Shown here: positions 1,608-63,095 of the stretch, one piece after another
Position numbering within the stretch: the stretch's first letter is position 1
Layout: each line of letters opens with the position of its first letter
NCBI GenBank assembly: GCA_903837125.1
Contig: CAILTG010000021.1
Span: forward strand, 11,627 to 75,626
DNA: 64,000 bases
Direction of reading: 5' to 3'
Origin: Candidatus Magasanikiibacteriota bacterium
Lineage (GTDB): Bacteria; Patescibacteriota; Patescibacteriia; Magasanikbacterales; UBA922
Made by a program: the position numbers and the translations under genes
The notes under the pieces: generated by a model
Databases searched by the model: none
Told to the model about the DNA's origin: nothing
Seen by the model: the letters and a program-made list of their open reading frames with translations, nothing else

Positions 1608-1611
1608 ATTT

Positions 1612-1986
1612 ATGAAAACAAATAAAAAAATCCTGATTGTTGAAGACGACCTGTTTACCATTAAACTCTACACTCGACTCTTAAACGACGCTGGTTTTGA
1701 TACCATTAGCACCCCCACAGCTCGAGAAGTGATTGGTTTAGCTAAGAGAGAAAAACCAAATTTAATAATTGTTGATTTAATGTTGGTCGACGGCAATGGC
1801 TTTGAGGTAATTAAGGAAGTTAGATCAACCACTGGCCTCAAGAAAATTCCCATCATAACCCTCTCCAATTTGGGACAAGAAACAGACATCAACGAGGCCA
1901 TTCGCAAAGGCAGTAATAAATACTTTGTTAAAAGCAACACGCGTTTTGAAGAAGTAATAGAAGCAGTAAAAGAATTAATTCAATAA
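1612..1986 (+). CDS. Single-domain response regulator (CheY-like receiver)
   Basis: KKILIVEDDLFTIKLY...IIVDLMLVDGNGFEVIKEVR... receiver signature. Starts 5 nt after the kinase stop, so likely an operon. Confidence 0.85.
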   Translation: MKTNKKILIVEDDLFTIKLYTRLLNDAGFDTISTPTAREVIGLAKREKPNLIIVDLMLVDGNGFEVIKEVRSTTGLKKIPIITLSNLGQETDINEAIRKGSNKYFVKSNTRFEEVIEAVKELIQ

Positions 1987-3924: not shown

Positions 3925-3960
3925 AAAATTTTTATGAATTTTCTATAAAAAACAAATTCA

Positions 3961-6567
3961 TTAATTATCTTTTTGCATCACCAATCCCAATGTTTTATCA
4001 GTCTTTAACTGCCATTTAACCGAAGCTCCATTCTTTCCCAAATCCAGATCTTCATTTATACGCCAAACTGGATGCCAGCCATCAGGATAGATAATCAAAG
4101 AAGAAAAATTATCCTCTACTCCGGATTGTTTTTGCACCAACAAACTATAAGACGAAGACTGCTTACTATTTATTCCCAAAAAAATTGCCAACTGATTAAC
4201 CGACACTGTATTGTCTTTTTGCTTAATTACTTTAAAAGGTAATCTATAAGTAAAATAAACTTCTGATGTTTGCCCCGGCGGAGTGATAACCCAATTACCA
4301 AAAGCCGTTTTAGCAAATTCTTGAGTTATTCTAGTTCCAGTTTTAGCGTGAATTGCCACCTCTTTTTCTAAATTCAACAAATCAACGTCATCTTGGTAAT
4401 CTTTTTTTGGCACATAAAAAGCGTCCTCTGGAGGAAAATTAAATCCTCCAGCATCCAATAATTCTGCACCAAGTGGTACATAAATTCGTAAATAATCTAC
4501 ATTATTTACACCATAAAATAATTCCCCGGGAGTACCAGTATGATTGCGCTGGATAATTACTGTGTCAATTACCGAACCATCTTCCTGCACTACTGTTTGA
4601 TGTTCAACATTTTCTTTAATTTTAGCATCTGTTTTTTGACCATCTAAATTAGTATTTACCGCCAAAAAATAATCCTGATTATCACTATTTTTATCTAACT
4701 CACCAGTCCAACCATAAGTCCTAAATTTATTCTGCACTTCTTGATCATTAAAATAAACCTGAATTTCTTTCTGTTGCAAAGCCTCTTGTAATTCACCTAC
4801 CAAACGCACCACTTCCATTTTATCTAAATGCTTAAAATTATCCAAAAATTGCGTGGCCAAACCACCAATTACTTCCTTAGGTTTATTGGCAACTTTATCA
4901 TAATTAATTTCCACTTGATATTGAAGTTTGGCTAAAGCATTATCTGCATTTAAAGTTAAACCACTCTTTTCATCTGCCATTGGCCCCATTACTCTTAGTA
5001 GCCTCTCCAAAACAGAGGCATTAATAGCTATCACCCCGTCCACTGTGGTATTGCGGCTGTGCTGATAAAACCATTCCAATTTTTGAGCAGAAACCGCAAA
5101 ATCGGGAAACCAATTTGCATCTTGAAACTCCCAACGGCCATTAGTAAGTTGTAGTGGTAACGGAGGTTTAACATACTGATCTAACTGACCCTGTAAATCG
5201 TAACTGCCACCAGCCGGAATATTTAAATTAATTATTTTCCCCTTTATTACATCTAGAACTGCAAAACTTCCAATAAAACCACCAGTAGGACGCACTTCTG
5301 AATTATTTTGAAAAACCAAAAGATAACGTTTTAATTGATCACTACCAAAAACTGTTTGCACGGCTCCTGACAAATCTGCCATATTTTTCATGTCATTAAT
5401 AAAAGCCGCAAATAATAATCTAAAATCATTAAACGACTGCTGATATTCTACCGGAACTGTTTGAACATTTACAGCACTTAAATCTTCCAAAGCTGCTTCA
5501 TACTGCGGAATAGCACTGTGTAAATATCTGGTTAATAAATTCAAACGATCGGTTAAAACCATTTGAGTTGATTTTTGCGTTGTATCTATTCCTTGCACCA
5601 AATAAGAATTACCCAAAGCCAAATGTTGGCCAGCTATTAAAAGATGCTGTCTACTGGTAACCTGCGTACCAATTATTGGCAAAAGACCGGCCACATATTG
5701 AAGCACTGTATGTTCTTTATCCATTATTGAAGTGGCTTGATTAAAAGAATTTAAAGCTGAATTCAAATCCATTTCTGCCTGTGGAATATTTGATTGCATC
5801 GCCGCCACGGTGGAAGATTGTAAAGCCAAAAAACCACTAGTACTGGCTTCCACAATTCTGCTACTTTCATCTTTTAAACTATGATAATAAGCAATTGTGG
5901 GAAAAGGTAAACCTAATAAAATTAATAAAATCAAACTGGCGTAAACAACTTTTCTGAAATATAATTTGTTTTTAAAATCTTTTAATCTTTTAATTTCTGC
6001 TAATTTAAATAATTTTAATTTTTCCTTAAATGATTTTTTAAAATAACTAAAACGATAACTAAAATTTAATCCTGGTAACATTAATTTTGGCAAAACAAAT
6101 TTTTGTTTAGCTGATTTAGTTAATTTTTGTCTACCAAATTTTTTCTTTTGTGCTAATAAAATATTCTGCAAATCAAACTCATCATCGGCCAAGCTTAAAT
6201 CTTTAGTCTTAGTTTTTAATCCGTCATTGTGTTCCTTTACTAATTTTGCAAAATCCACCACTTTTGGTTTAAGTTTTATCTCCACCGGCGCTTCTTGATA
6301 TATTTGCACCCCTTGCCAAACATCAGCTTTTTTCTTATGGGTTAAATCTACTACATGAGGTGAATGACTATGTTTTTCTGAAAAATTGATAAGTACCGCT
6401 TTCGGAAAAACATTTTTTTTACTATTAGATAAGTTCTTTTTTGATGTTAAATTAGCAGTTTTTAAAACTTTTTGTTTAACAACACCAAAACTACACCTGG
6501 CACCATTATGCCCAGTCTTGCCACACTTTGAACAACGCCTCAATTGTATCCCTCTTTTTACAGGCAT
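3961..6567 (-). CDS. Hypothetical membrane-anchored protein with an N-terminal CxxC...H...C zinc-ribbon/knuckle motif and a large extracytoplasmic domain.
   Basis: 868-aa ORF. N terminus MPVKRGIQLRRCSKCGKTGHNGARC. Single TM helix around LILLILLGLPFPTIAYY. No known catalytic motif recognised. Confidence 0.55.
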   Translation of the reverse strand: MPVKRGIQLRRCSKCGKTGHNGARCSFGVVKQKVLKTANLTSKKNLSNSKKNVFPKAVLINFSEKHSHSPHVVDLTHKKKADVWQGVQIYQEAPVEIKLKPKVVDFAKLVKEHNDGLKTKTKDLSLADDEFDLQNILLAQKKKFGRQKLTKSAKQKFVLPKLMLPGLNFSYRFSYFKKSFKEKLKLFKLAEIKRLKDFKNKLYFRKVVYASLILLILLGLPFPTIAYYHSLKDESSRIVEASTSGFLALQSSTVAAMQSNIPQAEMDLNSALNSFNQATSIMDKEHTVLQYVAGLLPIIGTQVTSRQHLLIAGQHLALGNSYLVQGIDTTQKSTQMVLTDRLNLLTRYLHSAIPQYEAALEDLSAVNVQTVPVEYQQSFNDFRLLFAAFINDMKNMADLSGAVQTVFGSDQLKRYLLVFQNNSEVRPTGGFIGSFAVLDVIKGKIINLNIPAGGSYDLQGQLDQYVKPPLPLQLTNGRWEFQDANWFPDFAVSAQKLEWFYQHSRNTTVDGVIAINASVLERLLRVMGPMADEKSGLTLNADNALAKLQYQVEINYDKVANKPKEVIGGLATQFLDNFKHLDKMEVVRLVGELQEALQQKEIQVYFNDQEVQNKFRTYGWTGELDKNSDNQDYFLAVNTNLDGQKTDAKIKENVEHQTVVQEDGSVIDTVIIQRNHTGTPGELFYGVNNVDYLRIYVPLGAELLDAGGFNFPPEDAFYVPKKDYQDDVDLLNLEKEVAIHAKTGTRITQEFAKTAFGNWVITPPGQTSEVYFTYRLPFKVIKQKDNTVSVNQLAIFLGINSKQSSSYSLLVQKQSGVEDNFSSLIIYPDGWHPVWRINEDLDLGKNGASVKWQLKTDKTLGLVMQKDN

Positions 6568-9141: not shown

Positions 9142-10020
9142 TTATTTAAATATACCTTGAACTGTTAAAAATGCTTCATTTTTCTCTAATGGTAAAGTGG
9201 AGGTCGGTAAATTCAAATTATCCACGCTAAGAAATTTTTGAAATTTATTTGCCTGCAAACCTTCCGCTGTTACTATCCTCTTTTGCCCATTTTGAACAAA
9301 CCAGACGTTGCCATTTTTGTCTTTAACAGCCGAACCTTCTGGAGAAGAATCTATGGTAAATGGTAACCCTATTTTATTAAATATTTCATAATATAACTGC
9401 AAATTCTGATCGTTAATTATTTTTTTGAACCAATCATCTCCATACCATTTAGCAAGCCACTCATTACTAACTTGGTTCAATGAACAATTCAAACCGGTAT
9501 AATATATTTTTGAAGGAACAATTGGAAAAATAACAACATTTCCCGCCCTGTAACAAACTGGACTGCCAATCCCAAGTATGGTAATTGCTTCCGGAGGTAA
9601 GGTTACAACATTGATATAACTTGAAAAATAATCATGATAAATAGTACCACTTTTAAACTCATGTAATTTACCATTTCCTACAACCCAAACTCTAGATTCA
9701 CCAGATATTTTAACCAAATCACCATCAATCAAATTTGGAATAACTATCTGTTTGCACCCGTCCTGCCATTCTACCTGGTATTGAATAGATGAAGTACAAG
9801 TTAATTTATAAGTACGCATCCCATGTCCAGCATCCCGACATTCACTTTTTAAAACATAAGTACTGCCAAAATTTGTCACTTTAATATCTTTGCCAACTTG
9901 CTGGCAGGCTGTAACATTTACTAAATTAATTCCTGTTGCCGGAGTTATTGCCTTCGTAATACTTGGTAAAAACAAAATTGCTAAAGCAACTACGGCTAAT
10001 GAGATGACAATTTTTCGCAT
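9142..10020 (-). CDS. Secreted hypothetical protein with a signal peptide and an N-terminal Cys-motif domain
   Basis: MRKIVISLAVVALAILFLPSITKA signal peptide. Motif CQQ...C.DAGHG...Y.L.C is shared with the ORF at 43052..44101. Confidence 0.55.
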   Translation of the reverse strand: MRKIVISLAVVALAILFLPSITKAITPATGINLVNVTACQQVGKDIKVTNFGSTYVLKSECRDAGHGMRTYKLTCTSSIQYQVEWQDGCKQIVIPNLIDGDLVKISGESRVWVVGNGKLHEFKSGTIYHDYFSSYINVVTLPPEAITILGIGSPVCYRAGNVVIFPIVPSKIYYTGLNCSLNQVSNEWLAKWYGDDWFKKIINDQNLQLYYEIFNKIGLPFTIDSSPEGSAVKDKNGNVWFVQNGQKRIVTAEGLQANKFQKFLSVDNLNLPTSTLPLEKNEAFLTVQGIFK

Positions 10021-14167: not shown

Positions 14168-14600
14168 TCTTATCTATTGTAGATGATCGCCTGCCGATGA
14201 GGCAGGAGGAAAGTCCGAACTCTATCCATTAATTTGGAAATGGTAGTGGGTAACACCCACCAGCACTTTAGAGATAAAGTGTTCGGGATAGCGCCACAGA
14301 GACAATACTACCCCGCAAAATGCGGGGGAAAGGTGAAAAGTGTATGGGGGTTTTGGTTCTAGATCAAAGCTACTATACTCCTCTAATAGTAATATTGGAG
14401 TGCGGCAAGCCCTACCTGGAGAAAGAGCAGCGCCCCGCAGTTTGCGGGGCGAAAAGTTAGCTCGTTAGAATCTATTGGCAACAATAGATCTAGATAAATG
14501 ATCGTCGCCCACAAATCACAACACCAATCGACACTAATTAGTGAAGATTAGTGAAAATAATAGTGGACACAAAATTCGGCTTATAACAATAGGTGAGACA
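14168..14600 (+). ncRNA. rnpB: RNase P RNA (bacterial type A), with a ~55-nt insertion containing ATTAGTG repeats near the 3' end
   Basis: P3 hairpin CCTGCC-GATGA-GGCAGG. CR-I GAGGAAAGTCCGAAC. P8/9 GGTAGTGGGTAACACCCACC. J11/12 CGCCACAGAGACAAT. P12 CCCCGCAAAATGCGGGGG. GGTGAAAAG. P18 ATCTATTG-GCAA-CAATAGAT followed by CTAGATAAATGA. CR-V ACAAAATTCGGCTTATAAC, whose TTCGGCTT pairs with AAGTCCGAA to form P4. P1/P2 5' tcttatctattgt pairs with 3' acaataggtgaga. Followed by an A/T hairpin terminator. Confidence 0.85.
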
Positions 14601-17726: not shown

Positions 17727-17809
17727 GTGGGCGAGAAGGGACTCGAACCCTTATGCCTTTCGGCGTTACCACCTCAAGGTAGTGCGTCTACCAATTTCGC
17801 CACTCGCCC
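17727..17809 (-). tRNA. tRNA-Leu (anticodon GAG) with a long variable arm
   Basis: Reverse complement GGGCGAGTGGCGAAATTGGTAGACGCACTACCTTGAGGTGGTAACGCCGAAAGGCATAAGGGTTCGAGTCCCTTCTCGCCCA. Acceptor and T arms pair. Anticodon loop TTGAGGT with G37. Leu-type D arm. Confidence 0.85.
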
Positions 17810-36498: not shown

Positions 36499-38073
36499 TT
36501 AAATCAATGCTCTCCCCGTCATCTCCGGCGGTTGTTCCAATTCCATTAATTTTAACATGGTAGACGCCACATCAGCCAACATGCCTACTGGTGGTATTAA
36601 ACTTAAATCACCCTCTGGTGGATCGCCAGCTGGACCGGCCTGACCTTTATATTTATTACCAATAATCAAAAATGGCACTGGATTATTACTATGTTCTTTT
36701 AATTTTTCTCCGGTCTGTAAATTAATTTTTTCTTCAGCATTACCATGGTCAGCCGTAATCAAAAGTAATCCATCTTTGGCCAATATATGATCACTTAATT
36801 TACCCAAACATTTGTCAATAACTTCCACGGCCTTAATAGTAGCGGCCAAATTACCGGTGTGACCTACCATATCCGCATTGGCGAAATTTATCATAATAGC
36901 GTCATAAATATCTGCTTCAATAGCTTTAATCACTTCTTTAGTAATTTCGTTTGCCGACATCTCTGGCACTTGATCATAAGAAGAAACATTAGCTGAAGGA
37001 ACAATTTTTCTTTCCTCTCCAGGGAAAGGATCTTCTATAGTGCCATTTAAAAAATAAGTAATGTGAGCATATTTGGTAGTTTCTGCCACATGAAATTGTT
37101 TAAGTCCAGCACGGCTAATTACTTCGGCCAAAGAATTGTGAACTACTTGTGGTAAATATGCGGGAACAGCCGGCAATTCTTTTTCATATTCGGACATGGT
37201 AACAAAAAACAAATTTCGCAAATAATTTCTTTCAAATTTAGCAAAACCTGGCAACACAAAAGCTTGAGTCAGTTCTCGAGCACGATCAGGACGTGAATTA
37301 AAAAAAATCGCCGCATCCCCATCTTTTACCACAGCTACTGGTTTGCCTTTTTTACCAATTACCACTGGCACAAATTCTTCATCATAAACTTTTTTGGCAT
37401 AAGAATCTTCAATGGCCTTTAAAGGATCACTGTAATAATCTATTGCCTCGCCCTCGGCCATAGCCCGATAAGCTTTCTCTGTTCTATCCCAACGATTATC
37501 ACGATCCATGGCGTAAAAACGTCCGGAAACCGTGGCAATTTCTCCGCACTTATACTCTTTAATTTTTTCCTGTAAACTTTTAACAAAACCCAAACCACTG
37601 TTATACATTACATCTCGCCCATCGATAATAACATGAAGATAAACATCCTTAATTTTCTGCTCTTTAGCAAATCTCAAAAGCGCTTCACAATGTTTTTCAC
37701 CAGCATGCACATTACCCGGACCGATAATCCCTATTAAATGCAAGGCTGATTTATTTTTCTTTACCTGTTCTGCTGCTTTCAAAAAAGCTTTATTTTGAAA
37801 AAAAGATTGGTCAGCAATTGCCTTATCAATTCTAGGAATTGTTTGATAATAAACACGACCCGCGCCAATGTTAAGATGACCTACTTCGGAATTACCTACC
37901 TTACCAAACATGAGTCCCACTTCTTGACCAGCGGCGTAAAGAGTCATGGCTGGATACTCACGCAAAAATTTATTGTAGTTTGGCAAAACAGCGCGAGTAA
38001 TAGCATTACCATCGCTTTTAGGAGCCACACCCCAACCGTCAAGAATAACTAATACTACAGGCCTGTTTTTCAT
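36499..38073 (-). CDS. gpmI: 2,3-bisphosphoglycerate-independent phosphoglycerate mutase (iPGM)
   Basis: VVLVILDGWGVAP ... GNSEVGHLNIGAGRVYYQ ... C-terminal ADHGNAE motifs. Confidence 0.88.
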   Translation of the reverse strand: MKNRPVVLVILDGWGVAPKSDGNAITRAVLPNYNKFLREYPAMTLYAAGQEVGLMFGKVGNSEVGHLNIGAGRVYYQTIPRIDKAIADQSFFQNKAFLKAAEQVKKNKSALHLIGIIGPGNVHAGEKHCEALLRFAKEQKIKDVYLHVIIDGRDVMYNSGLGFVKSLQEKIKEYKCGEIATVSGRFYAMDRDNRWDRTEKAYRAMAEGEAIDYYSDPLKAIEDSYAKKVYDEEFVPVVIGKKGKPVAVVKDGDAAIFFNSRPDRARELTQAFVLPGFAKFERNYLRNLFFVTMSEYEKELPAVPAYLPQVVHNSLAEVISRAGLKQFHVAETTKYAHITYFLNGTIEDPFPGEERKIVPSANVSSYDQVPEMSANEITKEVIKAIEADIYDAIMINFANADMVGHTGNLAATIKAVEVIDKCLGKLSDHILAKDGLLLITADHGNAEEKINLQTGEKLKEHSNNPVPFLIIGNKYKGQAGPAGDPPEGDLSLIPPVGMLADVASTMLKLMELEQPPEMTGRALI

Positions 38074-38081
38074 AATTTATT

Positions 38082-39635
38082 TTAATATAAAGGTTTTCCC
38101 GTCATTTCTTTTGCCTTTTCTATTCCCATCATTTTGAGTAATGTTGGTGCTACATCAGCCAAAATTCCTTTATTTTTCATTTTCATTCCTGCAAATTTGT
38201 CACCAATTAAAATACAAGGCACTGGATTTAAAGTATGTTCAGTCATTATTTCTTTAGTCTCTGCATTAATCATTACTTCAGCATTACCATGATCAGCCAC
38301 AATCATTACTTGACCTTTTAATTTCAACATACAATCAACTATTTTTTTTACGCCGGTGTCTACCACTTGAACTGCTTTCTTAGCTGCTTCTAAGTTTCCT
38401 GTATGTCCCACCATATCAGCATTAGGAAAATTAGTGCAGATAAAATTGTATTTTCCAGTTTGCAGATAATCAACAATTTTTTCTACCATTTTTGAGCTAC
38501 TCATTTCCGGCTTATCCGCATAAGAATGTTCTTTGGGCGATTTTATTACTTCACGCTCCTCGCCATTTAAAGGATCCGCATAACCACCATTAATAAAATA
38601 AGTTACATGAGCATATTTTTCTGTTTCGGAAATATATAACTGTTTATAAAGACCATCAATTACCGCTGGCAAACAATTTTTAATATCTGGAGAAGGAAAA
38701 GCAGTAAACACTCTTGGCAAATCCGGACCAAAATCAGTCATCGCCACGAAACGCGTATTTTTTGGCACTCTCTTTCTGATGAAAGCTCCTGGATTTTTTT
38801 GCTCAAAATCTTTTTGCACAAAAGCTTTGGTAATCTGACGAGCGCGGTCACTTCTGGCATTTACAAAATAAATAGCATCATTATTATTAATAGTGGCCAC
38901 TGGCTTATTATTTTCTATTATGACTGATGGACAAATATATTCATCTGTATCTCCCCGATTATACGATTGTGCCAAAGCTTCTTCCGCACTCTGTGAAGCA
39001 CAACCCTTACCCAAAACCATGGCCTCATAAGCTTTTTGCGTACGCTCCCAAATTTTATTTCTATCCATGCCATAAAATCGCCCCATAATGGTGGCAACTT
39101 TTTCATGCTCCAACATATGACCGCGTAATTCCCGTAAAAAACCAGTTGCTCCATGCGGAGAAGAATCACGCCCGTCGGTAAATAAATGTAAAAAAACTTT
39201 TTTTTGATTTTCACGCCGAAAAAATTCCAACATGGCATAAAGATGCTCCGGATAAGCGTGAGCGCTATTTTTGTCTGTTAACAGACTCATAATATGCACA
39301 GCTGTATCATATTTTTTTGTGTGATACAAAGCTTCTTTAAAAGCATGATTCTTAAAAAAAGTACCATCATGAATATGCTCAGAAATCATCACAACATCCT
39401 GTTTAACAATTCTGCCAGCGCCAATATTAAGGTGTCCGGCCTCAGAATTACCCTGCTGACCAGGGAAAAGCCCTACATTCTCGCCCGAGGTATTAAGAGT
39501 AGTATTGGCGTATTTTTTTAAATACCCAAAAATATTAGGTGCGGTTTCTGGAGTAATAGCATTGCCCAATTTTTGTTTGGACAAACCAAAACCGTCCAAA
39601 ATAATTAAAGCTGTAGGAATAATTTTATTTTCCAT
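38082..39635 (-). CDS. Second iPGM-family paralog, tandem to gpmI
   Basis: ALIILDGFGLS ... GNSEAGHLNIGAGRIVKQ ... VADHGNAE. The ATG start MENKIIP is at 39635; the ORF track uses an upstream TTG at 39677. Confidence 0.8.
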   Translation of the reverse strand: MENKIIPTALIILDGFGLSKQKLGNAITPETAPNIFGYLKKYANTTLNTSGENVGLFPGQQGNSEAGHLNIGAGRIVKQDVVMISEHIHDGTFFKNHAFKEALYHTKKYDTAVHIMSLLTDKNSAHAYPEHLYAMLEFFRRENQKKVFLHLFTDGRDSSPHGATGFLRELRGHMLEHEKVATIMGRFYGMDRNKIWERTQKAYEAMVLGKGCASQSAEEALAQSYNRGDTDEYICPSVIIENNKPVATINNNDAIYFVNARSDRARQITKAFVQKDFEQKNPGAFIRKRVPKNTRFVAMTDFGPDLPRVFTAFPSPDIKNCLPAVIDGLYKQLYISETEKYAHVTYFINGGYADPLNGEEREVIKSPKEHSYADKPEMSSSKMVEKIVDYLQTGKYNFICTNFPNADMVGHTGNLEAAKKAVQVVDTGVKKIVDCMLKLKGQVMIVADHGNAEVMINAETKEIMTEHTLNPVPCILIGDKFAGMKMKNKGILADVAPTLLKMMGIEKAKEMTGKPLY

Positions 39636-39744
39636 AATATTTTCTTTTTGTATATTAGTGACAGTATTATAGCGCAAAATGATTACAAGTTCAATTACCA
39701 GATAACAAATAACAAACTGTGTAATAGATCAAAAAATTATCCTC

Positions 39745-42840: not shown

Positions 42841-43051
42841 ATAGCATCGATTAAAAAATAAAAAAGCAGCATTTGTATAATGCTACTCTGTGTCAAGAGT
42901 ATAACATAAAAATAAATACCTGTCAAACATCAAAAAATTTAGTTAAAAATTATTACAAACTTATAAAATAAATAATTAAAAAACAACCAATTCATAAATT
43001 GGTTGTTTTTGTTAAATGTAAAACCGTTTAGTTAAAACAGGTGGAGAAAAT

Positions 43052-44101
43052 TTATTTGATTATTGCAGTTCCACCTATCACTGGGAATGTAGTATAACCT
43101 ACATCAACTTTACCACCGGTTTTTAAATTTGAAGCATTAACGCTTTCTTTATCTTTAATCATAGTTGTGAAAGTACCAAAAGAACCACTACCACTAAAAT
43201 TTAATTTAGCATAAGCAGAAAGTATTTTGCCCGTAAGTAAATAATTGATTTGTTTAAAATCAACTCTGATAGTAGTTGTGGTTATTGGCACTACAACTCC
43301 TGAAGCAATCTTTACTGCATTGTCATCTGTTAAATACCAGTCAGTCATAGCCACATTTCCATAATTAACAGTTATTGACAAATCATTCAGCTGTACTTCA
43401 TTACCTGCAGGCACCGAGGCAAAGGAATAAGCACTCACTCTATTTACGCCATTTGACAATTTAAAACCATCTGGGTAATTATTGTTTATCATTAAACTAA
43501 CTGCCGAGGGAGTTTCCTTCAAGCACGCGCCATTTTGACAGCCATTCTGACAAGTAATAAATTCAGTTTTGCCAATGTTATTTTCACAATATTGTTCTAT
43601 CAAAACTGAGTTATTTCCTGTCTGACAAGAATCTGTCGCTGTATATCCATAATTAGGACCCTTACTAAATACAACTGTACCCTGCACATTATTATTTCTT
43701 CCACCATCAGAATCAGTACATTTGGCTTCTTCACAAGGCTTCCAGCTTATAACATAAGATATTGGCGTTTGAAGGCTAGAAGAAGTTACCTGAAAAGTCC
43801 GAGCCGCTGGTTTACAAACATATGTATAGTTTAACAAACCATGGCCAGCGTCATTACAGCCATTAATTAATCTAAATGACACACCTCTATTTATTCCCGT
43901 AACCGAAACATTCACACCATCAGCCATTTGTTGACACGTCTGCACAGCTACATCATTGGAACCGGTACTTGAATTAGGGATCATATTATTCAATGGTACT
44001 GTCGCCAAAGCCACTGCCCCAGCCCCCATCATTGCCATGGTGGCAATAAATAATTTTGTTCCGCTCACTGCTTTGGTGGCGGTAGAAGTTAGTGTATCCA
44101 T
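43052..44101 (-). CDS. Secreted / cell-surface Cys-rich hypothetical protein, paralogous in its N-terminal domain to the ORF at 9142..10020
   Basis: N-terminal hydrophobic signal. VQTCQQMADGVNVSVTGINRGVSFRLINGCNDAGHGLLNYTYVC parallels VTACQQVGKDIKVTNFGSTYVLKSECRDAGHGMRTYKLTC. Confidence 0.55.
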   Translation of the reverse strand: MDTLTSTATKAVSGTKLFIATMAMMGAGAVALATVPLNNMIPNSSTGSNDVAVQTCQQMADGVNVSVTGINRGVSFRLINGCNDAGHGLLNYTYVCKPAARTFQVTSSSLQTPISYVISWKPCEEAKCTDSDGGRNNNVQGTVVFSKGPNYGYTATDSCQTGNNSVLIEQYCENNIGKTEFITCQNGCQNGACLKETPSAVSLMINNNYPDGFKLSNGVNRVSAYSFASVPAGNEVQLNDLSITVNYGNVAMTDWYLTDDNAVKIASGVVVPITTTTIRVDFKQINYLLTGKILSAYAKLNFSGSGSFGTFTTMIKDKESVNASNLKTGGKVDVGYTTFPVIGGTAIIK

Positions 44102-44183
44102 ATTGATTAATTTTAAATTTAAAATTTTTAATTATGTTTATAATTGTCCATCGACCAAAAGGACAAAAAAATTATTTATTAAA

Positions 44184-45200
44184 TTAATTTATTTCTTCTT
44201 TTTTCATATTCACCCACTCAGCCACTACTTCTTTAACATGATCAACATCAACCACCGGTATTTCTCCCTGACAATTTACACAAGCTTTTTTAGCAGCACT
44301 ATGCAAAAGTGCAGCGGCTTGTTCATGTTTGGAACCACGTTCAACATTTACCATAGCCGAAGCCTCATCCATAATATCAATCGCCTTGTCTGGTAATCTT
44401 CTACCTTTAATATACTCTTGTGATAATCTAACCGCAGCTAAAATTGCTTCATCAGTAATTTTTACTTTATGATAATCTTCATAATTTTTCTTAATGCCCT
44501 GCAAAATTTTAACTGATTCTTCTACACTAGGCTCATCTACTAAAACTATTTGAAAACGTCGATCCCAGCTTTCGTCTGGTTGAATATATTGTTCATATTC
44601 TTTTTGTGTAGTGGCACCAATAAGTTGAAGATCTCCGCGTGCTAAGGCTGGTTTTAAAATATCTGACAAATTTACTGCTCCTTCAGTTCCTTTGGTTTGA
44701 GTAATAGTGTGAATTTCATCAATAAATAAAATAATTGTGCGTTTTGAATTTCGGATCTCGGTAATTAATCCTTTTATTCTTTGCTCAAACTCGCCACGAT
44801 ATTTTGTTCCGGCCAAAATTTCTGATACTTGTAAAAGTAAAACTCTTTTATTCAATAAAACTTCCGGCACCTCACCGGTGGCAATGCGACTGGCCAAACC
44901 TTCTACTACTGCCGTCTTCCCCACTCCCGGCTGACCAACCAAAATAACATTATTTTTAGTTCTTCTAGTTAAAATTTGCGTAGCGCGATTGATTTCTTCA
45001 TCACGACCCACCACCGGATCAATGGTTCCTTTTTTAGCTTGAGCAGTAAGATCAACTGCATACATATCTAGATTATGAGTATCTATTGAAGAACCAATAT
45101 TTTTTCTTTTATAAAAATAAAAAACAGCCACCAAAATGACTGCTAAAATAATCCACTTAACGATGGGCAAACCAAGAATCGCGCTGATACCTAAATCCAT
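44184..45200 (-). CDS. AAA+ ATPase corresponding to the ClpA/ClpB/ClpC D1 module only, with an N-terminal TM anchor and no D2 module
   Basis: VGRDEEINRATQILTRRTKNNVILVGQPGVGKTAVVEGLASRIATGEVPE...GEFEQRIKGLITEI...ILFIDEIHT...LKPALARGDLQLIGATT..EY...D.SWDRRFQIV.VDEPSVEESV.IL.G aligns closely with Clp D1. The ATG is at 45200 (the ORF track uses a TTG at 45224). The protein ends after the D1 small domain. Confidence 0.7.
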   Translation of the reverse strand: MDLGISAILGLPIVKWIILAVILVAVFYFYKRKNIGSSIDTHNLDMYAVDLTAQAKKGTIDPVVGRDEEINRATQILTRRTKNNVILVGQPGVGKTAVVEGLASRIATGEVPEVLLNKRVLLLQVSEILAGTKYRGEFEQRIKGLITEIRNSKRTIILFIDEIHTITQTKGTEGAVNLSDILKPALARGDLQLIGATTQKEYEQYIQPDESWDRRFQIVLVDEPSVEESVKILQGIKKNYEDYHKVKITDEAILAAVRLSQEYIKGRRLPDKAIDIMDEASAMVNVERGSKHEQAAALLHSAAKKACVNCQGEIPVVDVDHVKEVVAEWVNMKKEEIN

Positions 45201-45276
45201 AAAAAACAAGTTTATTTTACCCAACAGGCAGTATTATAGCATAAATTGACCAGTTTGTCAAGTAAAAATTTATAAC

Positions 45277-46293
45277 TTAATATTTAAATATCGGCACCAA
45301 ATGTCCCTCATACTCGCCAATTTTGATACCTTCACTATCTTTACCAACAGCCAACTTCAACATATTTCTAAAATCACTATCCGCGTCACTTAACCTAACA
45401 AACTCTCCATTTTTAATAAATAACGGATCAACATAACGAAATTTAGGCCTTAAAATAATTTCTTTTTCTTTACTGCTAAATTTAAGAATTTTTTTACCAA
45501 GTAAAATTTGAATTTGCTCTTTAAAATTTTCGTCCTGACAAGCATAAATTTTATCCATGATAAATTTATCTGTTTCATTAAAATCATCCCATGTAATTAT
45601 ACCCTTAACAATTGCTTGATTTAATAATTGAGAGAATACCTGATAAGCAATCACATGAAGCGGCAGCCCCCAACAAGCTGTTTGACACTTTAAATAACCT
45701 TTAGCAAATAGTCCCACAGCTTTCTGATTATTAAAAATAATTCCTTGGTCAGTAACTTCTAAACTAGAAACGATTAATGATAGATTTTCTTTACTCTCCC
45801 AATTTTTCATCAACTTCAAAGAATAATCCAACCTATCGGCACAAACATTAGGAATTTTATTTTCTAATAGCTTAAAGGAATCAAAAGACAAAACTTTATT
45901 TATATCATAATTATATTTATTTAAAATTTCAGGAATTTTTGATTCAAACACCATTTGTTTATGTATGGTATCCTGATAGTCTTCAATTGATCCACGATCT
46001 TTCATCCAATCAACTACATGAGAAAAAGCCAAATGTGAAACATCATGAATTAACCCGGCAATTTGTTCTTCTAAGCTGGCGCCTAATTTTCGTAAAATTA
46101 ACATTACTCCTATTGAATGTTCAAACCTATTAAAACCTTTAAACTGGTCAAATTCAACAGGTAACCCATGTTGAGCAATACCTTGTAAACGTTGCAACGG
46201 CTGGCTGGCAATCAATTCTAACAAGACCGGTTCAGTTATTTCAAACTGTCCATAAATTTCGTCAGTTATGATTTTACTATTACTCATAATCAT
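45277..46293 (-). CDS. HD-domain metal-dependent phosphohydrolase
   Basis: H...HSIGV...(28 aa)...GLIHDVSHLAFSH HD motif. Confidence 0.65.
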   Translation of the reverse strand: MIMSNSKIITDEIYGQFEITEPVLLELIASQPLQRLQGIAQHGLPVEFDQFKGFNRFEHSIGVMLILRKLGASLEEQIAGLIHDVSHLAFSHVVDWMKDRGSIEDYQDTIHKQMVFESKIPEILNKYNYDINKVLSFDSFKLLENKIPNVCADRLDYSLKLMKNWESKENLSLIVSSLEVTDQGIIFNNQKAVGLFAKGYLKCQTACWGLPLHVIAYQVFSQLLNQAIVKGIITWDDFNETDKFIMDKIYACQDENFKEQIQILLGKKILKFSSKEKEIILRPKFRYVDPLFIKNGEFVRLSDADSDFRNMLKLAVGKDSEGIKIGEYEGHLVPIFKY

Positions 46294-46387: not shown

Positions 46388-49300
46388 TTAGCCAACTAAT
46401 AAATTTATATGCTGTAGTTCTAAAGGCAAACCGCCAGCATTTATGACACTACCGCTAGCATTTCCTTCTGCGGAAATATTATTTATTGTTGCAAACATTT
46501 CTGGTACTTGTGCTTCAGATAAAATATCTGCCCGCAGTTCAACAATTACTCTTTGATCTTTATTTAAGACATAATTTAGATTATCTATTACTACATTACT
46601 ACCTGAAAGAGTTATTTGTGAACCAATAGGTTGTCCATCAATAAATAAATTTAAGCCAGAAATATTTTCAAATCCACTAATATTTAAACTTAAATTATTT
46701 ATTTTTACATCCTCAACTTTTGGTTCTAACTCAAATCTTCCTAAAACAATACCAATAGAACCCGTGGCCACACTTGAAATCTCTAAAGGTTGGCCAAGAT
46801 AGACATCTAAAGTCCCCAAATTAGTTGGCACTGTTAAACTAAGATGCTGCAATTCCAATGGCAAACCGCCAGCATTTATGACACTACCACTAGAATTACC
46901 TTCTGCAGAAATATTATTTACAGTCACAAACATTCCTGGTACCTGTGCTTCTGGTAAGATATCTGCCCGCAGTTCAACAATTACTCTTTGATCTTTATTT
47001 AAGACATAATTTAGATTATCTATTACTAGGCTACTCCCTGATAGAAATACTTGTGAACCAATAGGTTGTCCATCAATAAATAAATTTAAGCCAGAAATAT
47101 TTTCAAATCCAGTAATATTTAAACTTAAATTATTTATTTTAATATCTTCAACTTTTGCCTCAAGTTCAAATCTTCCTAATACAACAGCGTTAGAACCAGC
47201 AGCCGTACTTGAAACCGTTAAAGGTTGACCAAGGTAAATATCTAAAGTGCCACTACTGCTCACTGGCGCTAAGGCATTATATTCCGCTGTAATCTCGGCA
47301 TCAGTTAAAACTCGCTTATAAAATTTAATTTCATCCATAGAACCAGAGAAGAAGTAATTATTATTATAACTTCCCACCAGAAGTGGAGAATTATCATTCT
47401 TTACCGCACCGGTTTGTGGCTGTTCACCAACTTTTACACCATTGGCATAAACGCGAATCATACTACCATCATAAGTAAGGACAATGTGATTCCATTGGGA
47501 CGTTTTAATTACGTTAGGTGTGTCAAAAACCACGCGAACATCAGACGCGTTGGTGATGCCGGTACGTAAACTGCCGTCATTGGAAATAGTTAATTCATAG
47601 TTAAGCTCTTTGGTAGCAACTACAGCATATTGATTGGAGAAAGATTCCGGCTTGATCCAAGCTTCCAAGGTTAAGGCTTGACCTGGCTCAAGATATTCAG
47701 AATCATTGGCAGTAATTAAATCATTTGTGCCGTCAAATTGCAGAGCAGTACCAGAAATGCCAAGAACATTCGCAATAGGACATTGATCTCCCGAACATCC
47801 TAGAGGAAATAAAGAAGCTGTATCAAAAAACTTGGTTGAATTAGCCGGCTCATTTAATTTATACTCAAAACTATTAATATCAATTGGAACTGGCTTAGAA
47901 TTATTATATTCTGTAGCAATTTCTTCATCTGTCAAAACACGTTTATAAAATTTAATTTCATCTATTGTGCCAAAGAATGGATAATTGCTATTGTAATTAC
48001 CAACTAATAGAGGCGTATTATCATTTTTTATAGCACCAGTCTGCACTTCCTCACCAACTTTTACGCCATTGACATAAGCCCGGACCATACTGCCATCATA
48101 AGTAAGCACAATGTGATTCCATTGGGACAACGTAACTACATTAGGAGTATCAAAAACTACCCGAGTATCAGCCGCATTGACAATACCTGTACGCAAACTA
48201 CCATCATTAGAAATAGTCAATTCATAATTAAGTCCCTTGCTAGCAACCACAGCATAATGATTAGAACTTGCATAAGGTTTGACCCAAGTTTCCAAAGTTA
48301 GGGCTTGACCCGGTTCAAGATATTCAGAATCATTGGCAGAAATCAGATCATTTGTGCCGTCAAATTGTAATGCAGTACCAGAAATACCAGGAACATTCGC
48401 AGTAGGGCATTGATCTCCCAAACAAGCTAAAGGAAAAATTGAGGCCTGATCAAAAAATTGATTTGATCCAACCGGTTCATTTAATTTATAGATCAATTCA
48501 TTATCAACAACTGGAACCGGTTTCAAATTATTATATTCCGCCATAATCTCAGCACCAGTTAAGGTTTGCTTATAAAATTTAATTTCATCAATTGTGCCAA
48601 AGAATGGATACCTATCATCACCTAAACTACCAACTAACAATGGGGTACTATCATTCTTTATGGCACCGGTCTGTGGCTGTTCACCTACTTTTACACCATT
48701 GACATAAGCGCGAATCATACTACCATCATAAGTAAGTGCTAGATGATTCCATTGGTACATTTTTACTACATTATATGCATCAACAGCCGCACGTATGTTG
48801 GAGGCATTGGTGATACCCGCACGCAAACTACCATCATTAGTAATAGATATTTCATAATTAAACCCTTTAGTAATGACCACGGAATAATAATTGGAACTGG
48901 GCTGAGGTTTAATCCAGGTTTCCAAAGTAATTTGGTCTGTTGCTGAAATAATTTCGTTGTTATTAATATAGGTAAAATTATTTACTCCATTGAATTGTAA
49001 AGCTTTCCCAGAAATACCTATTACACCTGCCTCTGGACAATAACTAGCGCCACAACCCATCACTAAACCAGAAACATTATCAACAAAACTAGTGCTACCA
49101 GATTGCTCTTCGAAACTATAAGCTAAATTAATAACACTTGGAGGAACAACTTTTGAAACATTTACCGGTCCCAACCAATCTCCACTACTAGTTAAATTTC
49201 CATCATTATCAACTACTACGACAAGATAATAATATATTCCAGAAGTAACATTGTCCGTATAAGAAACCATAGCCATATTTGTGGAAGTGTTGATTGGTGA

Positions 49301-50524
49301 AAGTCCGGAAATAAGAGTGGTGGTATTAGTACTACGATAAATTTCAAATCTATTAAAATCATTCTGATTGTCTACATAAGTATTCCAATTCAAAACTACA
49401 GTTTCCGGAGCGCTAGAACTGGTTGAAAGACCAGTTACTGGATTTGGAGGAATTAACTTTGGATCTATTTGCCCGGTAGTAGAAGTAAAATCTATGGATT
49501 TATTGAACAAAGGAGTAACACCAGTATTTAAGACTGAAGTATTATCAACATTTGAATTTGTTTTTATAACTAAATTATTATTTGCTGAATAAGCAAAAAT
49601 CCCCTGCTCTGTTTCATAAGAAATATTCTCTAAAGCAGAAAATTTTTCTTTGGTAAATTTATTTTTTAACAATTGACCGGAATAATTATACAAAGATACA
49701 CTGCCATCAGTAAGTTGAACCACTACTTCCAGTCCAGCATTATTTTTATCAATATCAGCCACAATTAAATTAGCACCACTGTCGCGTAAAATAATAGGAA
49801 ATCCGGTGGCAATAGTTCCAGAAGCAGAATAAGCATATAATTTATCATTACTTAAATACCACAATTCGCCATTACCATCATCAACTACTCTACTTAAAAC
49901 TGGACCAGAAACATTAATAGTCTTAACAAGATTCCAACCAGATGATCTTTGATAAACTTGTATTTCAGATTCTCCATCAACCGCATAATAAAACTTATTT
50001 TTAGCGTTGTCTGTTGAAATGTGATTTATTAAACTAGTACCAACTACAATTGGTGTAGCGGTCCAAATTCCAGAGTTTAGAGTTAACTCTTGTACATCCC
50101 CAGCAGCGCTACTATAAAGAACAGTATATTTTTGTAAATTATAATTATACAAGGAAACAATATCAAAACCCAAACCATAAGCATATAACATGACATTTGA
50201 AATTTCTGTTCCTGTACTACTATACAAATGTAAATAATATTCTCCGCTAGTTTTTCTTTCTACCACGCAAATTTCATTCCCAACTACTCCATCAAAATTA
50301 CCTACAATAGGATTGCCTTCAAAAACACCCTCTGCCCAAACAGGAAAACCAGATAACAATTTTCCTGAAGCAGAATAAACAGCCAAACCACCATCATTCG
50401 TAATCAAAATTCTTTCCGCGCCAGGACTAGCGGGATTTATTTCTCCTACACTAGCAAAAACCAAACCCGGCAGAACCAAAAACCCTAACACAGCGATTAG
50501 CGTCAACTTTAATTTTGTGAACAT
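46388..50524 (-). CDS. Giant secreted surface protein: signal peptide, beta-propeller-like N-terminal region, three tandem LamG (concanavalin/laminin-G, PF13385-like) domains, two C-terminal ~147-aa tandem repeats.
   Basis: Signal MFTKLKLTLIAVLGFLVLPGLVFA. Three copies of ...ALQFDGTNDLI.ANDSEYLEPGQALTLE.W.KP....N.YAVVA.K..NYELTISNDGSLR.GI.NA...RVVFDTPNV...QWNHIVLTYDGSM.R.YVNGVKVGE...GTIDEIKFYKRVLTD.EI. C-terminal repeat GTLD.YLGQPL..SS.A.GS...VLGRFELE.KVED.KINNLSLNI.GFENISGLNLFIDGQPIGSQ... x2. Confidence 0.75.
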   Translation of the reverse strand: MFTKLKLTLIAVLGFLVLPGLVFASVGEINPASPGAERILITNDGGLAVYSASGKLLSGFPVWAEGVFEGNPIVGNFDGVVGNEICVVERKTSGEYYLHLYSSTGTEISNVMLYAYGLGFDIVSLYNYNLQKYTVLYSSAAGDVQELTLNSGIWTATPIVVGTSLINHISTDNAKNKFYYAVDGESEIQVYQRSSGWNLVKTINVSGPVLSRVVDDGNGELWYLSNDKLYAYSASGTIATGFPIILRDSGANLIVADIDKNNAGLEVVVQLTDGSVSLYNYSGQLLKNKFTKEKFSALENISYETEQGIFAYSANNNLVIKTNSNVDNTSVLNTGVTPLFNKSIDFTSTTGQIDPKLIPPNPVTGLSTSSSAPETVVLNWNTYVDNQNDFNRFEIYRSTNTTTLISGLSPINTSTNMAMVSYTDNVTSGIYYYLVVVVDNDGNLTSSGDWLGPVNVSKVVPPSVINLAYSFEEQSGSTSFVDNVSGLVMGCGASYCPEAGVIGISGKALQFNGVNNFTYINNNEIISATDQITLETWIKPQPSSNYYSVVITKGFNYEISITNDGSLRAGITNASNIRAAVDAYNVVKMYQWNHLALTYDGSMIRAYVNGVKVGEQPQTGAIKNDSTPLLVGSLGDDRYPFFGTIDEIKFYKQTLTGAEIMAEYNNLKPVPVVDNELIYKLNEPVGSNQFFDQASIFPLACLGDQCPTANVPGISGTALQFDGTNDLISANDSEYLEPGQALTLETWVKPYASSNHYAVVASKGLNYELTISNDGSLRTGIVNAADTRVVFDTPNVVTLSQWNHIVLTYDGSMVRAYVNGVKVGEEVQTGAIKNDNTPLLVGNYNSNYPFFGTIDEIKFYKRVLTDEEIATEYNNSKPVPIDINSFEYKLNEPANSTKFFDTASLFPLGCSGDQCPIANVLGISGTALQFDGTNDLITANDSEYLEPGQALTLEAWIKPESFSNQYAVVATKELNYELTISNDGSLRTGITNASDVRVVFDTPNVIKTSQWNHIVLTYDGSMIRVYANGVKVGEQPQTGAVKNDNSPLLVGSYNNNYFFSGSMDEIKFYKRVLTDAEITAEYNALAPVSSSGTLDIYLGQPLTVSSTAAGSNAVVLGRFELEAKVEDIKINNLSLNITGFENISGLNLFIDGQPIGSQVFLSGSSLVIDNLNYVLNKDQRVIVELRADILPEAQVPGMFVTVNNISAEGNSSGSVINAGGLPLELQHLSLTVPTNLGTLDVYLGQPLEISSVATGSIGIVLGRFELEPKVEDVKINNLSLNISGFENISGLNLFIDGQPIGSQITLSGSNVVIDNLNYVLNKDQRVIVELRADILSEAQVPEMFATINNISAEGNASGSVINAGGLPLELQHINLLVG
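46391..47272. repeat. Two tandem ~441-bp DNA repeats encoding the C-terminal repeat domain of the LamG protein
   Basis: Near-identical segments beginning ...aaaggcaaaccgccagcatttatgacactacc... at about 46420 and ...aatggcaaaccgccagcatttatgacactacc... at about 46862. Confidence 0.75.
47275..49150. repeat. Three tandem ~625-bp DNA repeats encoding the LamG domains
   Basis: Repeated blocks ...ggtgtgtcaaaaaccacgcgaacatcagacgcgttggtgatgcc... / ...ggagtatcaaaaactacccgagtatcagccgcattgacaatacc... / ...ttatatgcatcaacagccgcacgtatgttggaggcattggtgatacc... Confidence 0.65.
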
Positions 50525-59681: not shown

Positions 59682-60068
59682 TTAATCCACCGGGATCACA
59701 TATTTCCTCAGCACAAACTTATCCGGCATTCTTTCCACATATATACTAATTTGTTCAAACATAATCGGCGTGATTCCAATATCTATATTATTCTCAAAAC
59801 AATAACTTTGGCAAGCTTTAAAAAACTTCTTCATTTTTTCTTCATCCACAGCTCGTTCGGCACTGCCCTCGCCATAACTTCTGGTTTTTACTTCTATAAA
59901 CGATAATTTTTTTAATTTATCATAATTATCATAATGGCTGGCAATAATATCCACCTCACCTTGAGGTATAGAATAATTACGCTTAACAATTTCATAACCA
60001 GCTTTAATTAAAAAAAGTGAGGCCTGCTCCTCACCCCACTGTCCCAATTTTTGCTTAGCGGTCTGCAT
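59682..60068 (-). CDS. yraN: YraN-family (UPF0102) endonuclease-like protein
   Basis: LGQWGEEQASLFLIKAGYEIVKRNYS...GEVDIIASH.......FIEVKTR matches the YraN family. Confidence 0.65.
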   Translation of the reverse strand: MQTAKQKLGQWGEEQASLFLIKAGYEIVKRNYSIPQGEVDIIASHYDNYDKLKKLSFIEVKTRSYGEGSAERAVDEEKMKKFFKACQSYCFENNIDIGITPIMFEQISIYVERMPDKFVLRKYVIPVD

Positions 60069-63023: not shown

Positions 63024-63095
63024 CTGCCAGGGAAGGAATCGAACCCTCACTAACCTCGTTAACAGCGAGGCGTTTTACCATTAAACTACCTGGCA
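63024..63095 (-). tRNA. tRNA-Asn (anticodon GTT)
   Basis: Reverse complement TGCCAGGTAGTTTAATGGTAAAACGCCTCGCTGTTAACGAGGTTAGTGAGGGTTCGATTCCTTCCCTGGCAG. Acceptor TGCCAGG/CCTGGCA. Anticodon loop CTGTTAA. T loop TTCGATT. U1-A72 as in E. coli tRNA-Asn. Confidence 0.85.

Follow-up and report, generated by a model that had tools for sequence, protein, structure and literature searches.

A membrane-anchored, D1-only Clp/Hsp100 protein of Patescibacteria and the conserved surface-protein handle encoded beside it

Hsp100/Clp ATPases occur in two textbook forms, either as two-ring proteins (ClpA, ClpB and ClpC), with a first (D1) and a second (D2) AAA+ module, or as D2-like one-ring proteins (ClpX and HslU). 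The known single-ring members are D2-like, and the protein described here is not among them. It is encoded at positions 44184–45200 on the minus strand of the window, a 64,000-nucleotide stretch of contig CAILTG010000021.1 (positions 11,627–75,626; assembly GCA_903837125.1) from a Candidatus Magasanikiibacteriota bacterium. The protein has 338 residues and is composed of a transmembrane (TM) helix followed by a single D1-type AAA+ module; we call it and its relatives TM-D1. The gene directly downstream, 43052–44101 on the same strand, encodes a 349-residue partner, a Cys-rich and beta-rich surface protein, which starts with a conserved N-terminal segment referred to here as the handle. The pairing of ATPase and handle genes goes beyond the first-pass annotation of this DNA, and suggests a previously undescribed membrane motor dedicated to its partner.

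The D1 modules of ClpC from B. subtilis, S. aureus and M. tuberculosis (ClpC1) and of ClpB are 46–51% identical to the window protein in structure-based alignments. The Walker A and B motifs, the AGxKYRGEFE pore loop, GATT, RRFQ, and LPDKAID are identical in these proteins. ClpC and ClpB also contain the Clp_N domain, the M-domain, and D2, which is the main ATPase motor and in ClpC carries the ClpP-binding loop, whereas the window protein has none of these and is equipped with a TM anchor instead. Judged by its sequence, the window protein is a Clp/Hsp100 D1 by descent, yet it is without the defining features of every named class-I family.

Other described systems share single aspects of the locus. 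In the accessory Sec (SecA2/SecY2), sortase/LPXTG, and exosortase/PEP-CTERM systems, a machine is found beside surface proteins with a short conserved terminal signal and a variable passenger. These systems have no sequence or fold relation to the one described here, in which the signal is N-terminal and predicted to face the cytoplasm, and the machine is a Clp-type AAA+ protein. FtsH is a bacterial membrane-anchored hexameric AAA+ protein that dislocates membrane proteins, beginning at a cytoplasmic tail, and the window protein may likewise be hexameric. FtsH differs in that it belongs to another AAA+ clade, spans the membrane with two TM helices, and contains a periplasmic domain as well as a fused M41 zinc protease, whereas the window protein has a single TM helix, no periplasmic domain, and no Pfam match to Peptidase_M41. 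Torsin with LAP1 or LULL1 is a Clp/Hsp100-related single AAA+ module located at a membrane, with a single-pass type-II partner (PMC4999309, PMC5638581). Torsin is D2-like, lumenal, devoid of an Arg finger, and activated by LAP1 in trans, whereas the module described here is D1-like, predicted to be cytoplasmic, and has Arg fingers of its own. The eukaryotic dislocase Msp1/ATAD1 combines one N-terminal TM helix with one AAA+ ring whose entry face is turned to the membrane, an orientation that the window protein would share if it follows Hsp100 structures. Msp1 is a membrane-anchored AAA+ protein that extracts membrane proteins from bilayers, single-pass proteins by threading (PMC12793716, PMC12624790). 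It is not homologous to the window protein outside the AAA+ fold and belongs to the classical AAA clade, of which katanin and AFG2 match the window protein only at E ~1e-4, whereas the best matches of known structure are all Clp/Hsp100. Msp1 also differs in having no dedicated co-encoded client, and in acting on C-terminal tail anchors, as opposed to the N-terminal tail proposed here.

Domain content and fold of the ATPase

The open reading frame (ORF) of the ATPase ends with the stop codon at 44184–44186 and can be read from an ATG at 45200 or from the first TTG at 45224. The latter gives the ORF 44184–45224, which corresponds to the 346-residue database entry P0001. The gene is directly preceded by a sigma-70-type promoter with a TG extension (TTGACA-17 nt-TATAAT, 45233–45261, minus strand), which matches the consensus at 12/12 positions. 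The ATG is the probable start, because the TTG is located only ~9 nt past the -10 box, where the transcript should begin. The Pfam search identified two domains only in the protein, AAA (residues 85–205, E 5e-15) and AAA_lid_9 (residues 225–302, E 1e-28). There was no Pfam match to Clp_N, and AAA_2 remained below the cut-off, with a whole-protein E of 0.005 and 0 stretches passing. In the NCBIfam search, the protein aligns to positions 154–407 of the 853 of ClpB (E 8e-111), to positions 164–439 of the 734 of ClpA, and to TssH. None of the equivalog cut-offs is reached (372 versus 1232 bits for ClpB, 338 versus 993 for ClpA, and 340 versus 885 for TssH), and the scores are about a third of the cut-offs or less owing to the lack of one of the two AAA+ modules. 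A phmmer search of the PDB matched the protein to D1 of ClpC, ClpB, Hsp104, and ClpA at E ~1e-87, with no significant alignment to D2. Pfam, NCBIfam, phmmer, and the AlphaFold2 model described below agree with the first-pass annotation, which had proposed a membrane-anchored single ClpB/ClpA D1 module devoid of N domain, M domain, and D2. Members of the family are labelled ClpA, ClpC, or 'AAA family ATPase' in databases. A role as an anti-phage defence ATPase was rejected, because PADLOC returned only weak generic AAA matches to the protein (IetA and TRIP13, E 5e-8 to 1e-5 over ~90 residues) and none to the partner.

The Walker A, Walker B, and sensor and Arg-finger motifs named in the first-pass annotation are all present, and their key residues are invariant in 61 family members, to which all statements on invariance refer. 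All features of the protein are encoded on the minus strand. The Walker A motif GQPGVGKT is formed by residues 89–96 (44913–44936), of which G89, P91, and G92–T96 are invariant. The pore-1 loop AGTKYRGEFEQR (residues 130–141, 44778–44813) contains the substrate-gripping Tyr134; K133, Y134, R135, and G136 are invariant, and the loop aligns with the AGxKYRGEFE motif of ClpC and ClpB in the phmmer search of the PDB. D161 and E162 are invariant in the Walker B motif ILFIDEIH (residues 157–164, 44709–44732). The stretch from sensor-1 to the Arg finger (44550–44618) begins with GATT (residues 195–198, 44607–44618), with invariant T197, and ends with RRFQ (residues 214–217, 44550–44561), with invariant R214 and R215.

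The structure predicted by AlphaFold2 from 61 family sequences has a mean predicted local distance difference test score (pLDDT) of 87.8, and consists of a helix formed by residues 12–35, a six-residue coil, and canonical large and small domains of D1. In Foldseek, the model superposes on D1 of ClpC, ClpC1, ClpB, and ClpA over ~290–299 columns at ~2 Å. The helix at residues 12–35 (45096–45167) is the N-terminal TM anchor, and its hydrophobic core WIILAVILVAVFYFY (residues 16–30, 45111–45155) is followed by a basic KRKN patch (residues 31–34, 45099–45110). Across the family, the segment preceding the helix contains on average 0.10 Lys and Arg residues, and the 12 residues that follow it contain 2.89. 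Because positive charges are scarce before the helix and abundant after it, the anchor is predicted by the positive-inside rule to be N-out and C-in, which would place the ATPase module in the cytoplasm. In the model, about 6–10 residues separate the TM helix from the first helix of D1.

The small, or lid, domain of D1 (AAA_lid_9, 44295–44528) includes the LPDKAID motif (residues 269–275, 44376–44396). The position of the M-domain is occupied by a linker of ~29 residues (287–315, 44256–44342) with a family-specific helix EQAAALLHSAAKK and a non-conserved CxxC, modelled with a pLDDT of 52–55. The last helix of the small domain, VVDVDHVKEVVAEWVNMKKEEIN (residues 316–338, 44187–44255), contains VKEVVAEW, and the alignment to ClpA extends to residue 336. 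The first-pass annotation had the chain stop where the M-domain and D2 would begin. It does end exactly at the D1/D2 junction; the M-domain is a different matter, since the last helix of D1, which comes after the M-domain in ClpB and ClpC, is retained beyond the M-domain site.

The position of the chain end raises the possibility of a split Clp, in which the membrane-bound D1 ring would stack on a separately encoded D2-type or ClpX-like ring into a two-tier ClpC, possibly feeding ClpP. The C-terminal tripeptide [DE][IV]H, present in 85 of 120 listed relatives and replaced by EIN in the window protein (44187–44195), could dock such a partner, and clpP is present in at least one family-bearing genome. 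We consider a split Clp very improbable: 25 loci contain no D2-only ORF within 6–10 kb, the tripeptide is not conserved in more distant members, and we know of no precedent. Independently of a second ring, the conserved extreme C-terminus might dock another protein, and this feature too is lost in more distant clusters. In two-ring Clp ATPases, the loop that docks ClpP is located in D2. Because D2 is missing, the usual protease docking would not be available to TM-D1, and no direct protease coupling is expected; the tripeptide IG[FL] of the ClpP-docking type was not found in the sequence of the protein.

Conservation and origin of the TM-D1 family

The best 120 clusters from a search of 5.8 billion proteins are 255–411 residues long and have the same domain content as the window protein, and those that are named belong to Candidatus Magasanikbacteria. 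A complete N-terminus with a hydrophobic helix is present in 113 of these 120 clusters. A scan of every protein in a 1.8-billion-sequence library provided further short TM-D1 clusters at ~50% identity (P0127–P0135, P0143, and P0206). The short form was found at 17 loci in a one-genome-per-species scan, in Falkow-, Magasanik-, Uhr-, and Buchananbacteria, 'Paceibacter', and unclassified Patescibacteria. All named candidate phyla carrying TM-D1 are within the Parcubacteria group of Patescibacteria. The architecture of a TM helix and D1 alone thus recurs across several lineages of the candidate phyla radiation (CPR), where the first-pass annotation had recommended looking for orthologs. The ratio of nonsynonymous to synonymous substitution rates (dN/dS) between the window gene and two relatives is 0.08–0.10 (Nei–Gojobori method, with dS saturated). 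TM-D1 is thus a real, conserved gene of CPR/Patescibacteria that is under purifying selection.

The possibility that the gene is a decaying clpB, which was raised in the first-pass annotation, or more generally a clpB or clpC truncated by pseudogenization, a frameshift, or an assembly artefact, is practically negligible. It would explain why a class-I Hsp100, generally expected to have two AAA+ modules, has one, and why no NCBIfam equivalog cut-off is reached. More than 120 clusters of 320–411 residues, 17 loci, and many genomes nevertheless repeat this length and architecture, with dN/dS of ~0.1. The gene has a perfect promoter of its own, the stop codon is placed precisely at the D1/D2 junction, and the N-domain has given way to a newly acquired TM helix. 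Remnants of the missing parts were searched for with tblastn, for which seven full-length Clp proteins supplied the M-domain/D2 and N-domain queries. No frame of the window gave a match, the best E being 5.4 at an unrelated place in the window, and the 25 family loci gave nothing except cross-matches inside the D1 gene itself. The 82-bp stretch at 44102–44183, which the first-pass annotation advised checking for D2 remnants, is a plain AT-rich spacer.

Relatives of ~395 residues contain a coiled-coil insert of ~55 residues that corresponds to a short ClpC-like M-domain, and the long-form member P0047 aligns without interruption to residues 142–487 of B. subtilis ClpC, M-domain included. Because the long-form relatives retain a ClpC-like M-domain, the alignments indicate that the TM-D1 family descends from a ClpC-type protein in which the N-domain was replaced by a TM helix and D2 was lost. 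The sub-clade of the window protein has lost the M-domain as well. The suggestion that the protein might be a disaggregase in the sense of ClpB is unlikely, since the M-domain that couples to DnaK is absent. A full-text literature search, the coverage of which was incomplete so that absence is not proof, returned no account of a Clp from CPR that is D1-only or membrane-anchored. The conserved family indicates that the first ring of an Hsp100 can be retained alone and turned to a new use, and offers a natural minimal system for asking what a lone D1 ring can do. Five metagenome-assembled genomes with the TM-D1 and handle module (L012, L014, L017, L019, and L022) have records titled 'uncultured Gammaproteobacteria bacterium', probably an automatic mislabel.

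The partner gene, its handle and linkage to the ATPase gene

The ATPase and partner genes are separated by the 82-bp spacer (44102–44183, minus strand), which contains no ORF or terminator-like hairpin. A terminator-like hairpin with a 14-bp stem followed by a T run is located just after the partner gene (42979–43010, minus strand), and the next promoter (42898–42926) serves nusA. The two genes form an operon and are predicted to be co-transcribed, because they are preceded by one 12/12 promoter, are not interrupted by a terminator, and are closed by the hairpin after the partner gene.

The partner protein has no Pfam or NCBIfam family and no match in PADLOC. Its AlphaFold2 model, based on a five-sequence alignment, has a pLDDT of 38 and is usable only for the description 'beta-rich'. 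The handle is formed by residues 1–39 (43985–44101, minus strand) and can be divided into a Thr/Lys-rich tail MDTLTSTATKAVSGTK (residues 1–16, 44054–44101), an Ala/Gly-rich TM segment LFIATMAMMGAGAVALA (residues 17–33, 44003–44053), and a conserved TVPLNN (residues 34–39, 43985–44002). Across the family, the tail has a median length of 16 residues (range 13–46) and is composed of 25% Thr, 14% Lys, and 11% Ser, and the hydrophobic stretch contains 34% Ala and 12% Gly. The most conserved element of the handle is the junction (S/T)-x-T-K | (L/M)-x-(V/I)-A-(T/V). The lysines that precede the helix predict an N-in/C-out topology for the partner. A type IV pilin-like (class III) signal was rejected by eye, as there is no Gly or Ala at position -1 and no mature N-terminus of the FTLIE type.

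The handle is conserved to about the same extent as the ATPase, and the rest of the partner is not. The first 40 residues of the partner are 78–83% identical (31–33 of 40) to those of three measured relatives, and the ATPases on the same contigs are 84–85% identical. The ectodomains of the same relatives are 25–32% identical to that of the window partner where they can be aligned, and that of P0293 is mostly unalignable. Between the window and locus L004, 11 of the 25 codons for identical residues of the handle differ synonymously, so that it is the peptide, as opposed to the DNA, that is under constraint. The ectodomains of handle proteins range from 40 to more than 1,100 residues and contain CARDB, DUF11, parallel beta-helix repeats, or Gly/Tyr-rich tails, which are typical of cell-surface proteins. 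Very small handle proteins of 80–202 residues with Gly/Tyr-rich repeats (GYGYN, YVPGYVPGY) are encoded at L007 9062–9316, L014 3143–3385 and 3421–3693, L089 9091–9399, L090 7165–7404, and L010 7058–7666.

The handle was present beside the ATPase gene in all of the relatives inspected at the outset, with a different protein behind it in each case. The linkage of the handle to the ATPase was examined with a hidden Markov model (HMM) of the handle, which was scanned over 11,408 ORFs of at least 40 residues from the family loci and from loci of full-length Clp genes. Within 394 kb of the family loci, the HMM matched only ORFs adjoining the AAA+ gene. In the 625 kb around full-length Clp genes from other phyla there was no match at E < 1, and the remaining ~60 kb of the window contained no other handle gene. 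According to the HMM and inspection, one to three handle genes are present at 22 of the 24 informative loci, each from a distinct genome, a count that leaves out two contigs too short to judge. The handle gene is the immediate neighbour of the ATPase gene, usually downstream and on the same strand, at 19 of these 22 loci. A reverse search starting from the handle retrieved one metagenome locus, in which the AAA+ gene is followed by two different handle proteins. A profile of 21 handles searched against the 5.8 billion proteins gave no match at E ≤ 10, the motif being too short and degenerate for a database of that size. The first-pass annotation had suspected a role in protein export or quality control from the surrounding surface-protein genes. 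This hint pointed in the right direction and was too general, the specific link being to the downstream gene with the handle.

The pair is embedded in at least eight flanking contexts, which include UPF0102/NusA, TsaE, DnaJ/YceI, YidC/TrmB, PheT, MscL, SMC, a P-type ATPase, and others. As the pair remains constant while the flanks differ, it is kept together by something other than inherited synteny. This constancy, together with the handle evolving as slowly as the ATPase while the cargo is replaced, argues against a general membrane-protein quality-control dislocase or chaperone, similar to FtsH without the protease, or the only Hsp100 of the lineage, to which the neighbour would be unrelated or one client among others. 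Such a function would fit the architectural parallel to Msp1 and FtsH, the housekeeping neighbourhood (UPF0102, NusA, and YidC), the hrcA-grpE-dnaK-dnaJ operon two genes away at L005, and a clpP located 1.6 kb away at one locus. The window protein, however, has no M-domain for coupling to DnaK and no CtsR or CIRCE heat-shock operator at its promoter, because of which heat-shock regulation was rejected, and we regard the quality-control function as rather unlikely. The L005 operon (1435–5793, upstream of the ATPase gene) was set aside as a clue, since it is found in one relative only and is probably coincidental. The proximity of YidC and NusA was also set aside, because it is confined to local synteny, unlike the handle gene.

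At five family loci, though not in the window, a third gene recurs next to the ATPase or handle genes, and its product is a polytopic membrane protein of the PMT_2/EpsG-like (GT-C) type that contains the motif FGYDxGxYR. It is encoded at L007 6363–7910, L010 7596–9077, L012 1242–2573, L013 7250–8659, and L090 7334–8788, and the five proteins match each other in blastp at E 1e-24 to 1e-79. A possible function is to glycosylate the ectodomain of the partner or to polymerise something on it.

The window contains a secreted paralogue of the partner (9142–10020, minus strand, 292 residues), which shares the first Cys-containing module of the partner's ectodomain (32% identity, E 3e-8). The paralogue has an ordinary Sec signal peptide at the position equivalent to the handle, so the handle occupies the position of a signal peptide. 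One possible reading is that the handle is itself a signal peptide of a specialised, cleavable type, in which the n-region is extended and the h-region rich in Gly and Ala, similar to those of accessory-Sec substrates, and that the ATPase is a dedicated export or targeting factor. The ATPase would then recognise the handle at the membrane and hold or unfold the precursor or hand it to SecYEG/YidC, or dispose of the signal peptide after cleavage. The sequence ALA-TVPLNN, which is conserved, is reminiscent of a signal-peptidase site, and the variable cargo behind a constant N-terminal signal, encoded next to an ATPase gene, follows the genetic logic of accessory Sec. The glycosyltransferase-type neighbour at five loci and the YidC gene nearby in the window, L004, L006, and L007 fit the same explanation. 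An entry face at the membrane, as expected from Hsp100 structures, would nevertheless thread polypeptide away from the membrane and not to the translocon, and the ATPase has no homology to SecA or any known secretion ATPase. The proximity of YidC is limited to a few related loci with common local synteny, and the signal cleavage is only putative. We consider an export factor unlikely, though of some weight.

The partner could also be a membrane adaptor, activator, or sensor and not a substrate, comparable to LAP1/LULL1 for Torsin, MecA for ClpC, and Pex15/Pex26 for Pex1/6. In that case the ectodomain of the partner, being variable, would act as a sensor of the surroundings, such as a host cell, and the tail and TM segment would activate a ring that remodels other cytoplasmic or membrane targets. 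ClpC-type ATPases need adaptors for assembly and activity, and the absence of the N-domain and M-domain, to which adaptors usually bind, makes a new activator plausible. Motifs of small residues are present in the TM segments of both proteins, many ATPase anchors having G-x6-G and the handle being GAxA-rich, and the ectodomains with CARDB, DUF11, or beta-helix resemble diversifying surface receptors. In contrast to Torsin, the Arg fingers and all catalytic residues of TM-D1 are intact, so that no trans-activating residue is needed. Some partners are tiny (80–100 residues) with Gly/Tyr-rich tails, and two to three different handle proteins at a locus suit clients better than a single regulator. 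An adaptor role of the partner is, in our assessment, distinctly unlikely.

Possible mode of action and surroundings of the operon

We tentatively favour, at somewhat less than an even chance, a membrane-tethered single-ring unfoldase with its entry face at the membrane, which engages the cytoplasmic tail and handle of the co-encoded partner. As in other Hsp100 proteins, TM-D1 would form a hexameric ring, hydrolyse ATP, and thread polypeptide past the pore-loop tyrosines. Structures of substrate-bound ClpB, ClpC, and ClpA, of the kind matched by Foldseek, have established the N-terminal face of D1 as the site of substrate entry in Hsp100 hexamers, and these tyrosines as the residues that pull the substrate through. 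Because the anchor precedes D1 by only about 6–10 residues, the substrate-entry face of the ring would be located against the inner face of the membrane, and the ring could pull only out of, or away from, the bilayer, a geometry that matches those of Msp1/ATAD1 and FtsH. The Thr/Lys/Ser tail of the handle and its weakly hydrophobic Ala/Gly helix would be the element gripped by the ring, which would either pull the anchor, or the signal-anchor stub left after cleavage, out of the bilayer or exert tension on the surface protein. The composition of the handle TM segment, with 34% Ala and 12% Gly, fits easy extraction, because the efficiency of extraction drops as TM hydrophobicity rises (PMC5509421). 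The first-pass annotation had considered a novel minimal membrane-tethered unfoldase. The architecture, conservation, and intact catalytic residues uphold this part of the proposal, and the unfolding activity is expected by analogy.

Several observations weigh against this unfoldase reading. The D1 rings of ClpB and Hsp104 are, in isolation, poor at hexamerisation and threading, and D1 of ClpA serves mainly for assembly, so that strong unfoldase activity cannot be taken for granted in a D1-only motor. FtsH needs about 20 residues to start dislocation, compared with the median of 16 in the handle tail. Gene adjacency does not tell a substrate from an adaptor or regulator, and the interaction with the partner is only putative. 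It may also be that the handle is no more than a signal peptide that has an extended n-region and is cleaved off, in which case the mature protein would be detached from it, and AxA-like sites are found after the handle TM segment. Complete retro-translocation of the partner is implausible, because the ectodomains are large, Cys-rich, and probably folded. There is no handle gene in the flanks of L036, and L018 is ambiguous. The promoter has neither a CtsR repeat nor CIRCE, and matches to them elsewhere in the window are at chance level.

In a broader form, which we consider possible if doubtful, TM-D1 and the handle would constitute an unrecognised CPR system for protein sorting or energy transduction, with a Clp-derived ATP motor at the membrane that recognises the handle, with its T/K-rich tail and Ala/Gly TM segment, as a dedicated N-terminal signal facing the cytoplasm, and that applies threading force from within the cell to extract, release, retract, or mechanically energise interchangeable surface proteins. 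It would be a conceptual ATP-powered counterpart of TonB-ExbBD, pilin extraction, and accessory Sec. In this broader form, D1-only proteins would also represent a third Hsp100 architecture beside the two-ring and D2-like single-ring proteins. The tight pairing of the ATPase with a handle that is conserved on otherwise hypervariable proteins suggests that CPR surface proteins pass through a dedicated step that requires energy. These proteins are the molecules likeliest to mediate host-cell attachment and episymbiosis in these uncultivated ultra-small bacteria. The module is small, consisting of two genes, a 40-residue signal, and a 300-residue soluble motor, and the handle could be used as a bioinformatic marker by which a new class of cell-surface proteins is recognised.

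The UPF0102 and ATPase genes are adjacent in the relatives L004, L008, L010, and L011. In the window, UPF0102 is located at 59682–60068, and an HD-domain gene (45277–46293), a gene for a 1378-residue LamG-repeat protein (46388–50524), and an RHS protein gene are inserted between it and the ATPase gene. The segment 50976–59470 (minus strand) encodes this 2633-residue RHS-repeat/CARDB/DUF6531 protein, followed by a 195-residue ORF without a family, and the two look like a polymorphic toxin and immunity pair. On the other side of the operon, tandem paralogues of cofactor-independent phosphoglycerate mutase (iPGM_N plus Metalloenzyme) are encoded at 36499–38073 and 38082–39677 (minus strand). The segment 39757–40332 contains ORFs that overlap on both strands, and it has no Pfam match and no Rfam match at the gathering threshold. 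Their translations are rich in Arg, Gly, and Pro, which is odd for a genome with 34% GC. The window also includes a bacterial class A RNase P RNA (14171–14599, plus strand, 173 bits) and two tRNA genes, at 17728–17809 and 63024–63095, both on the minus strand.

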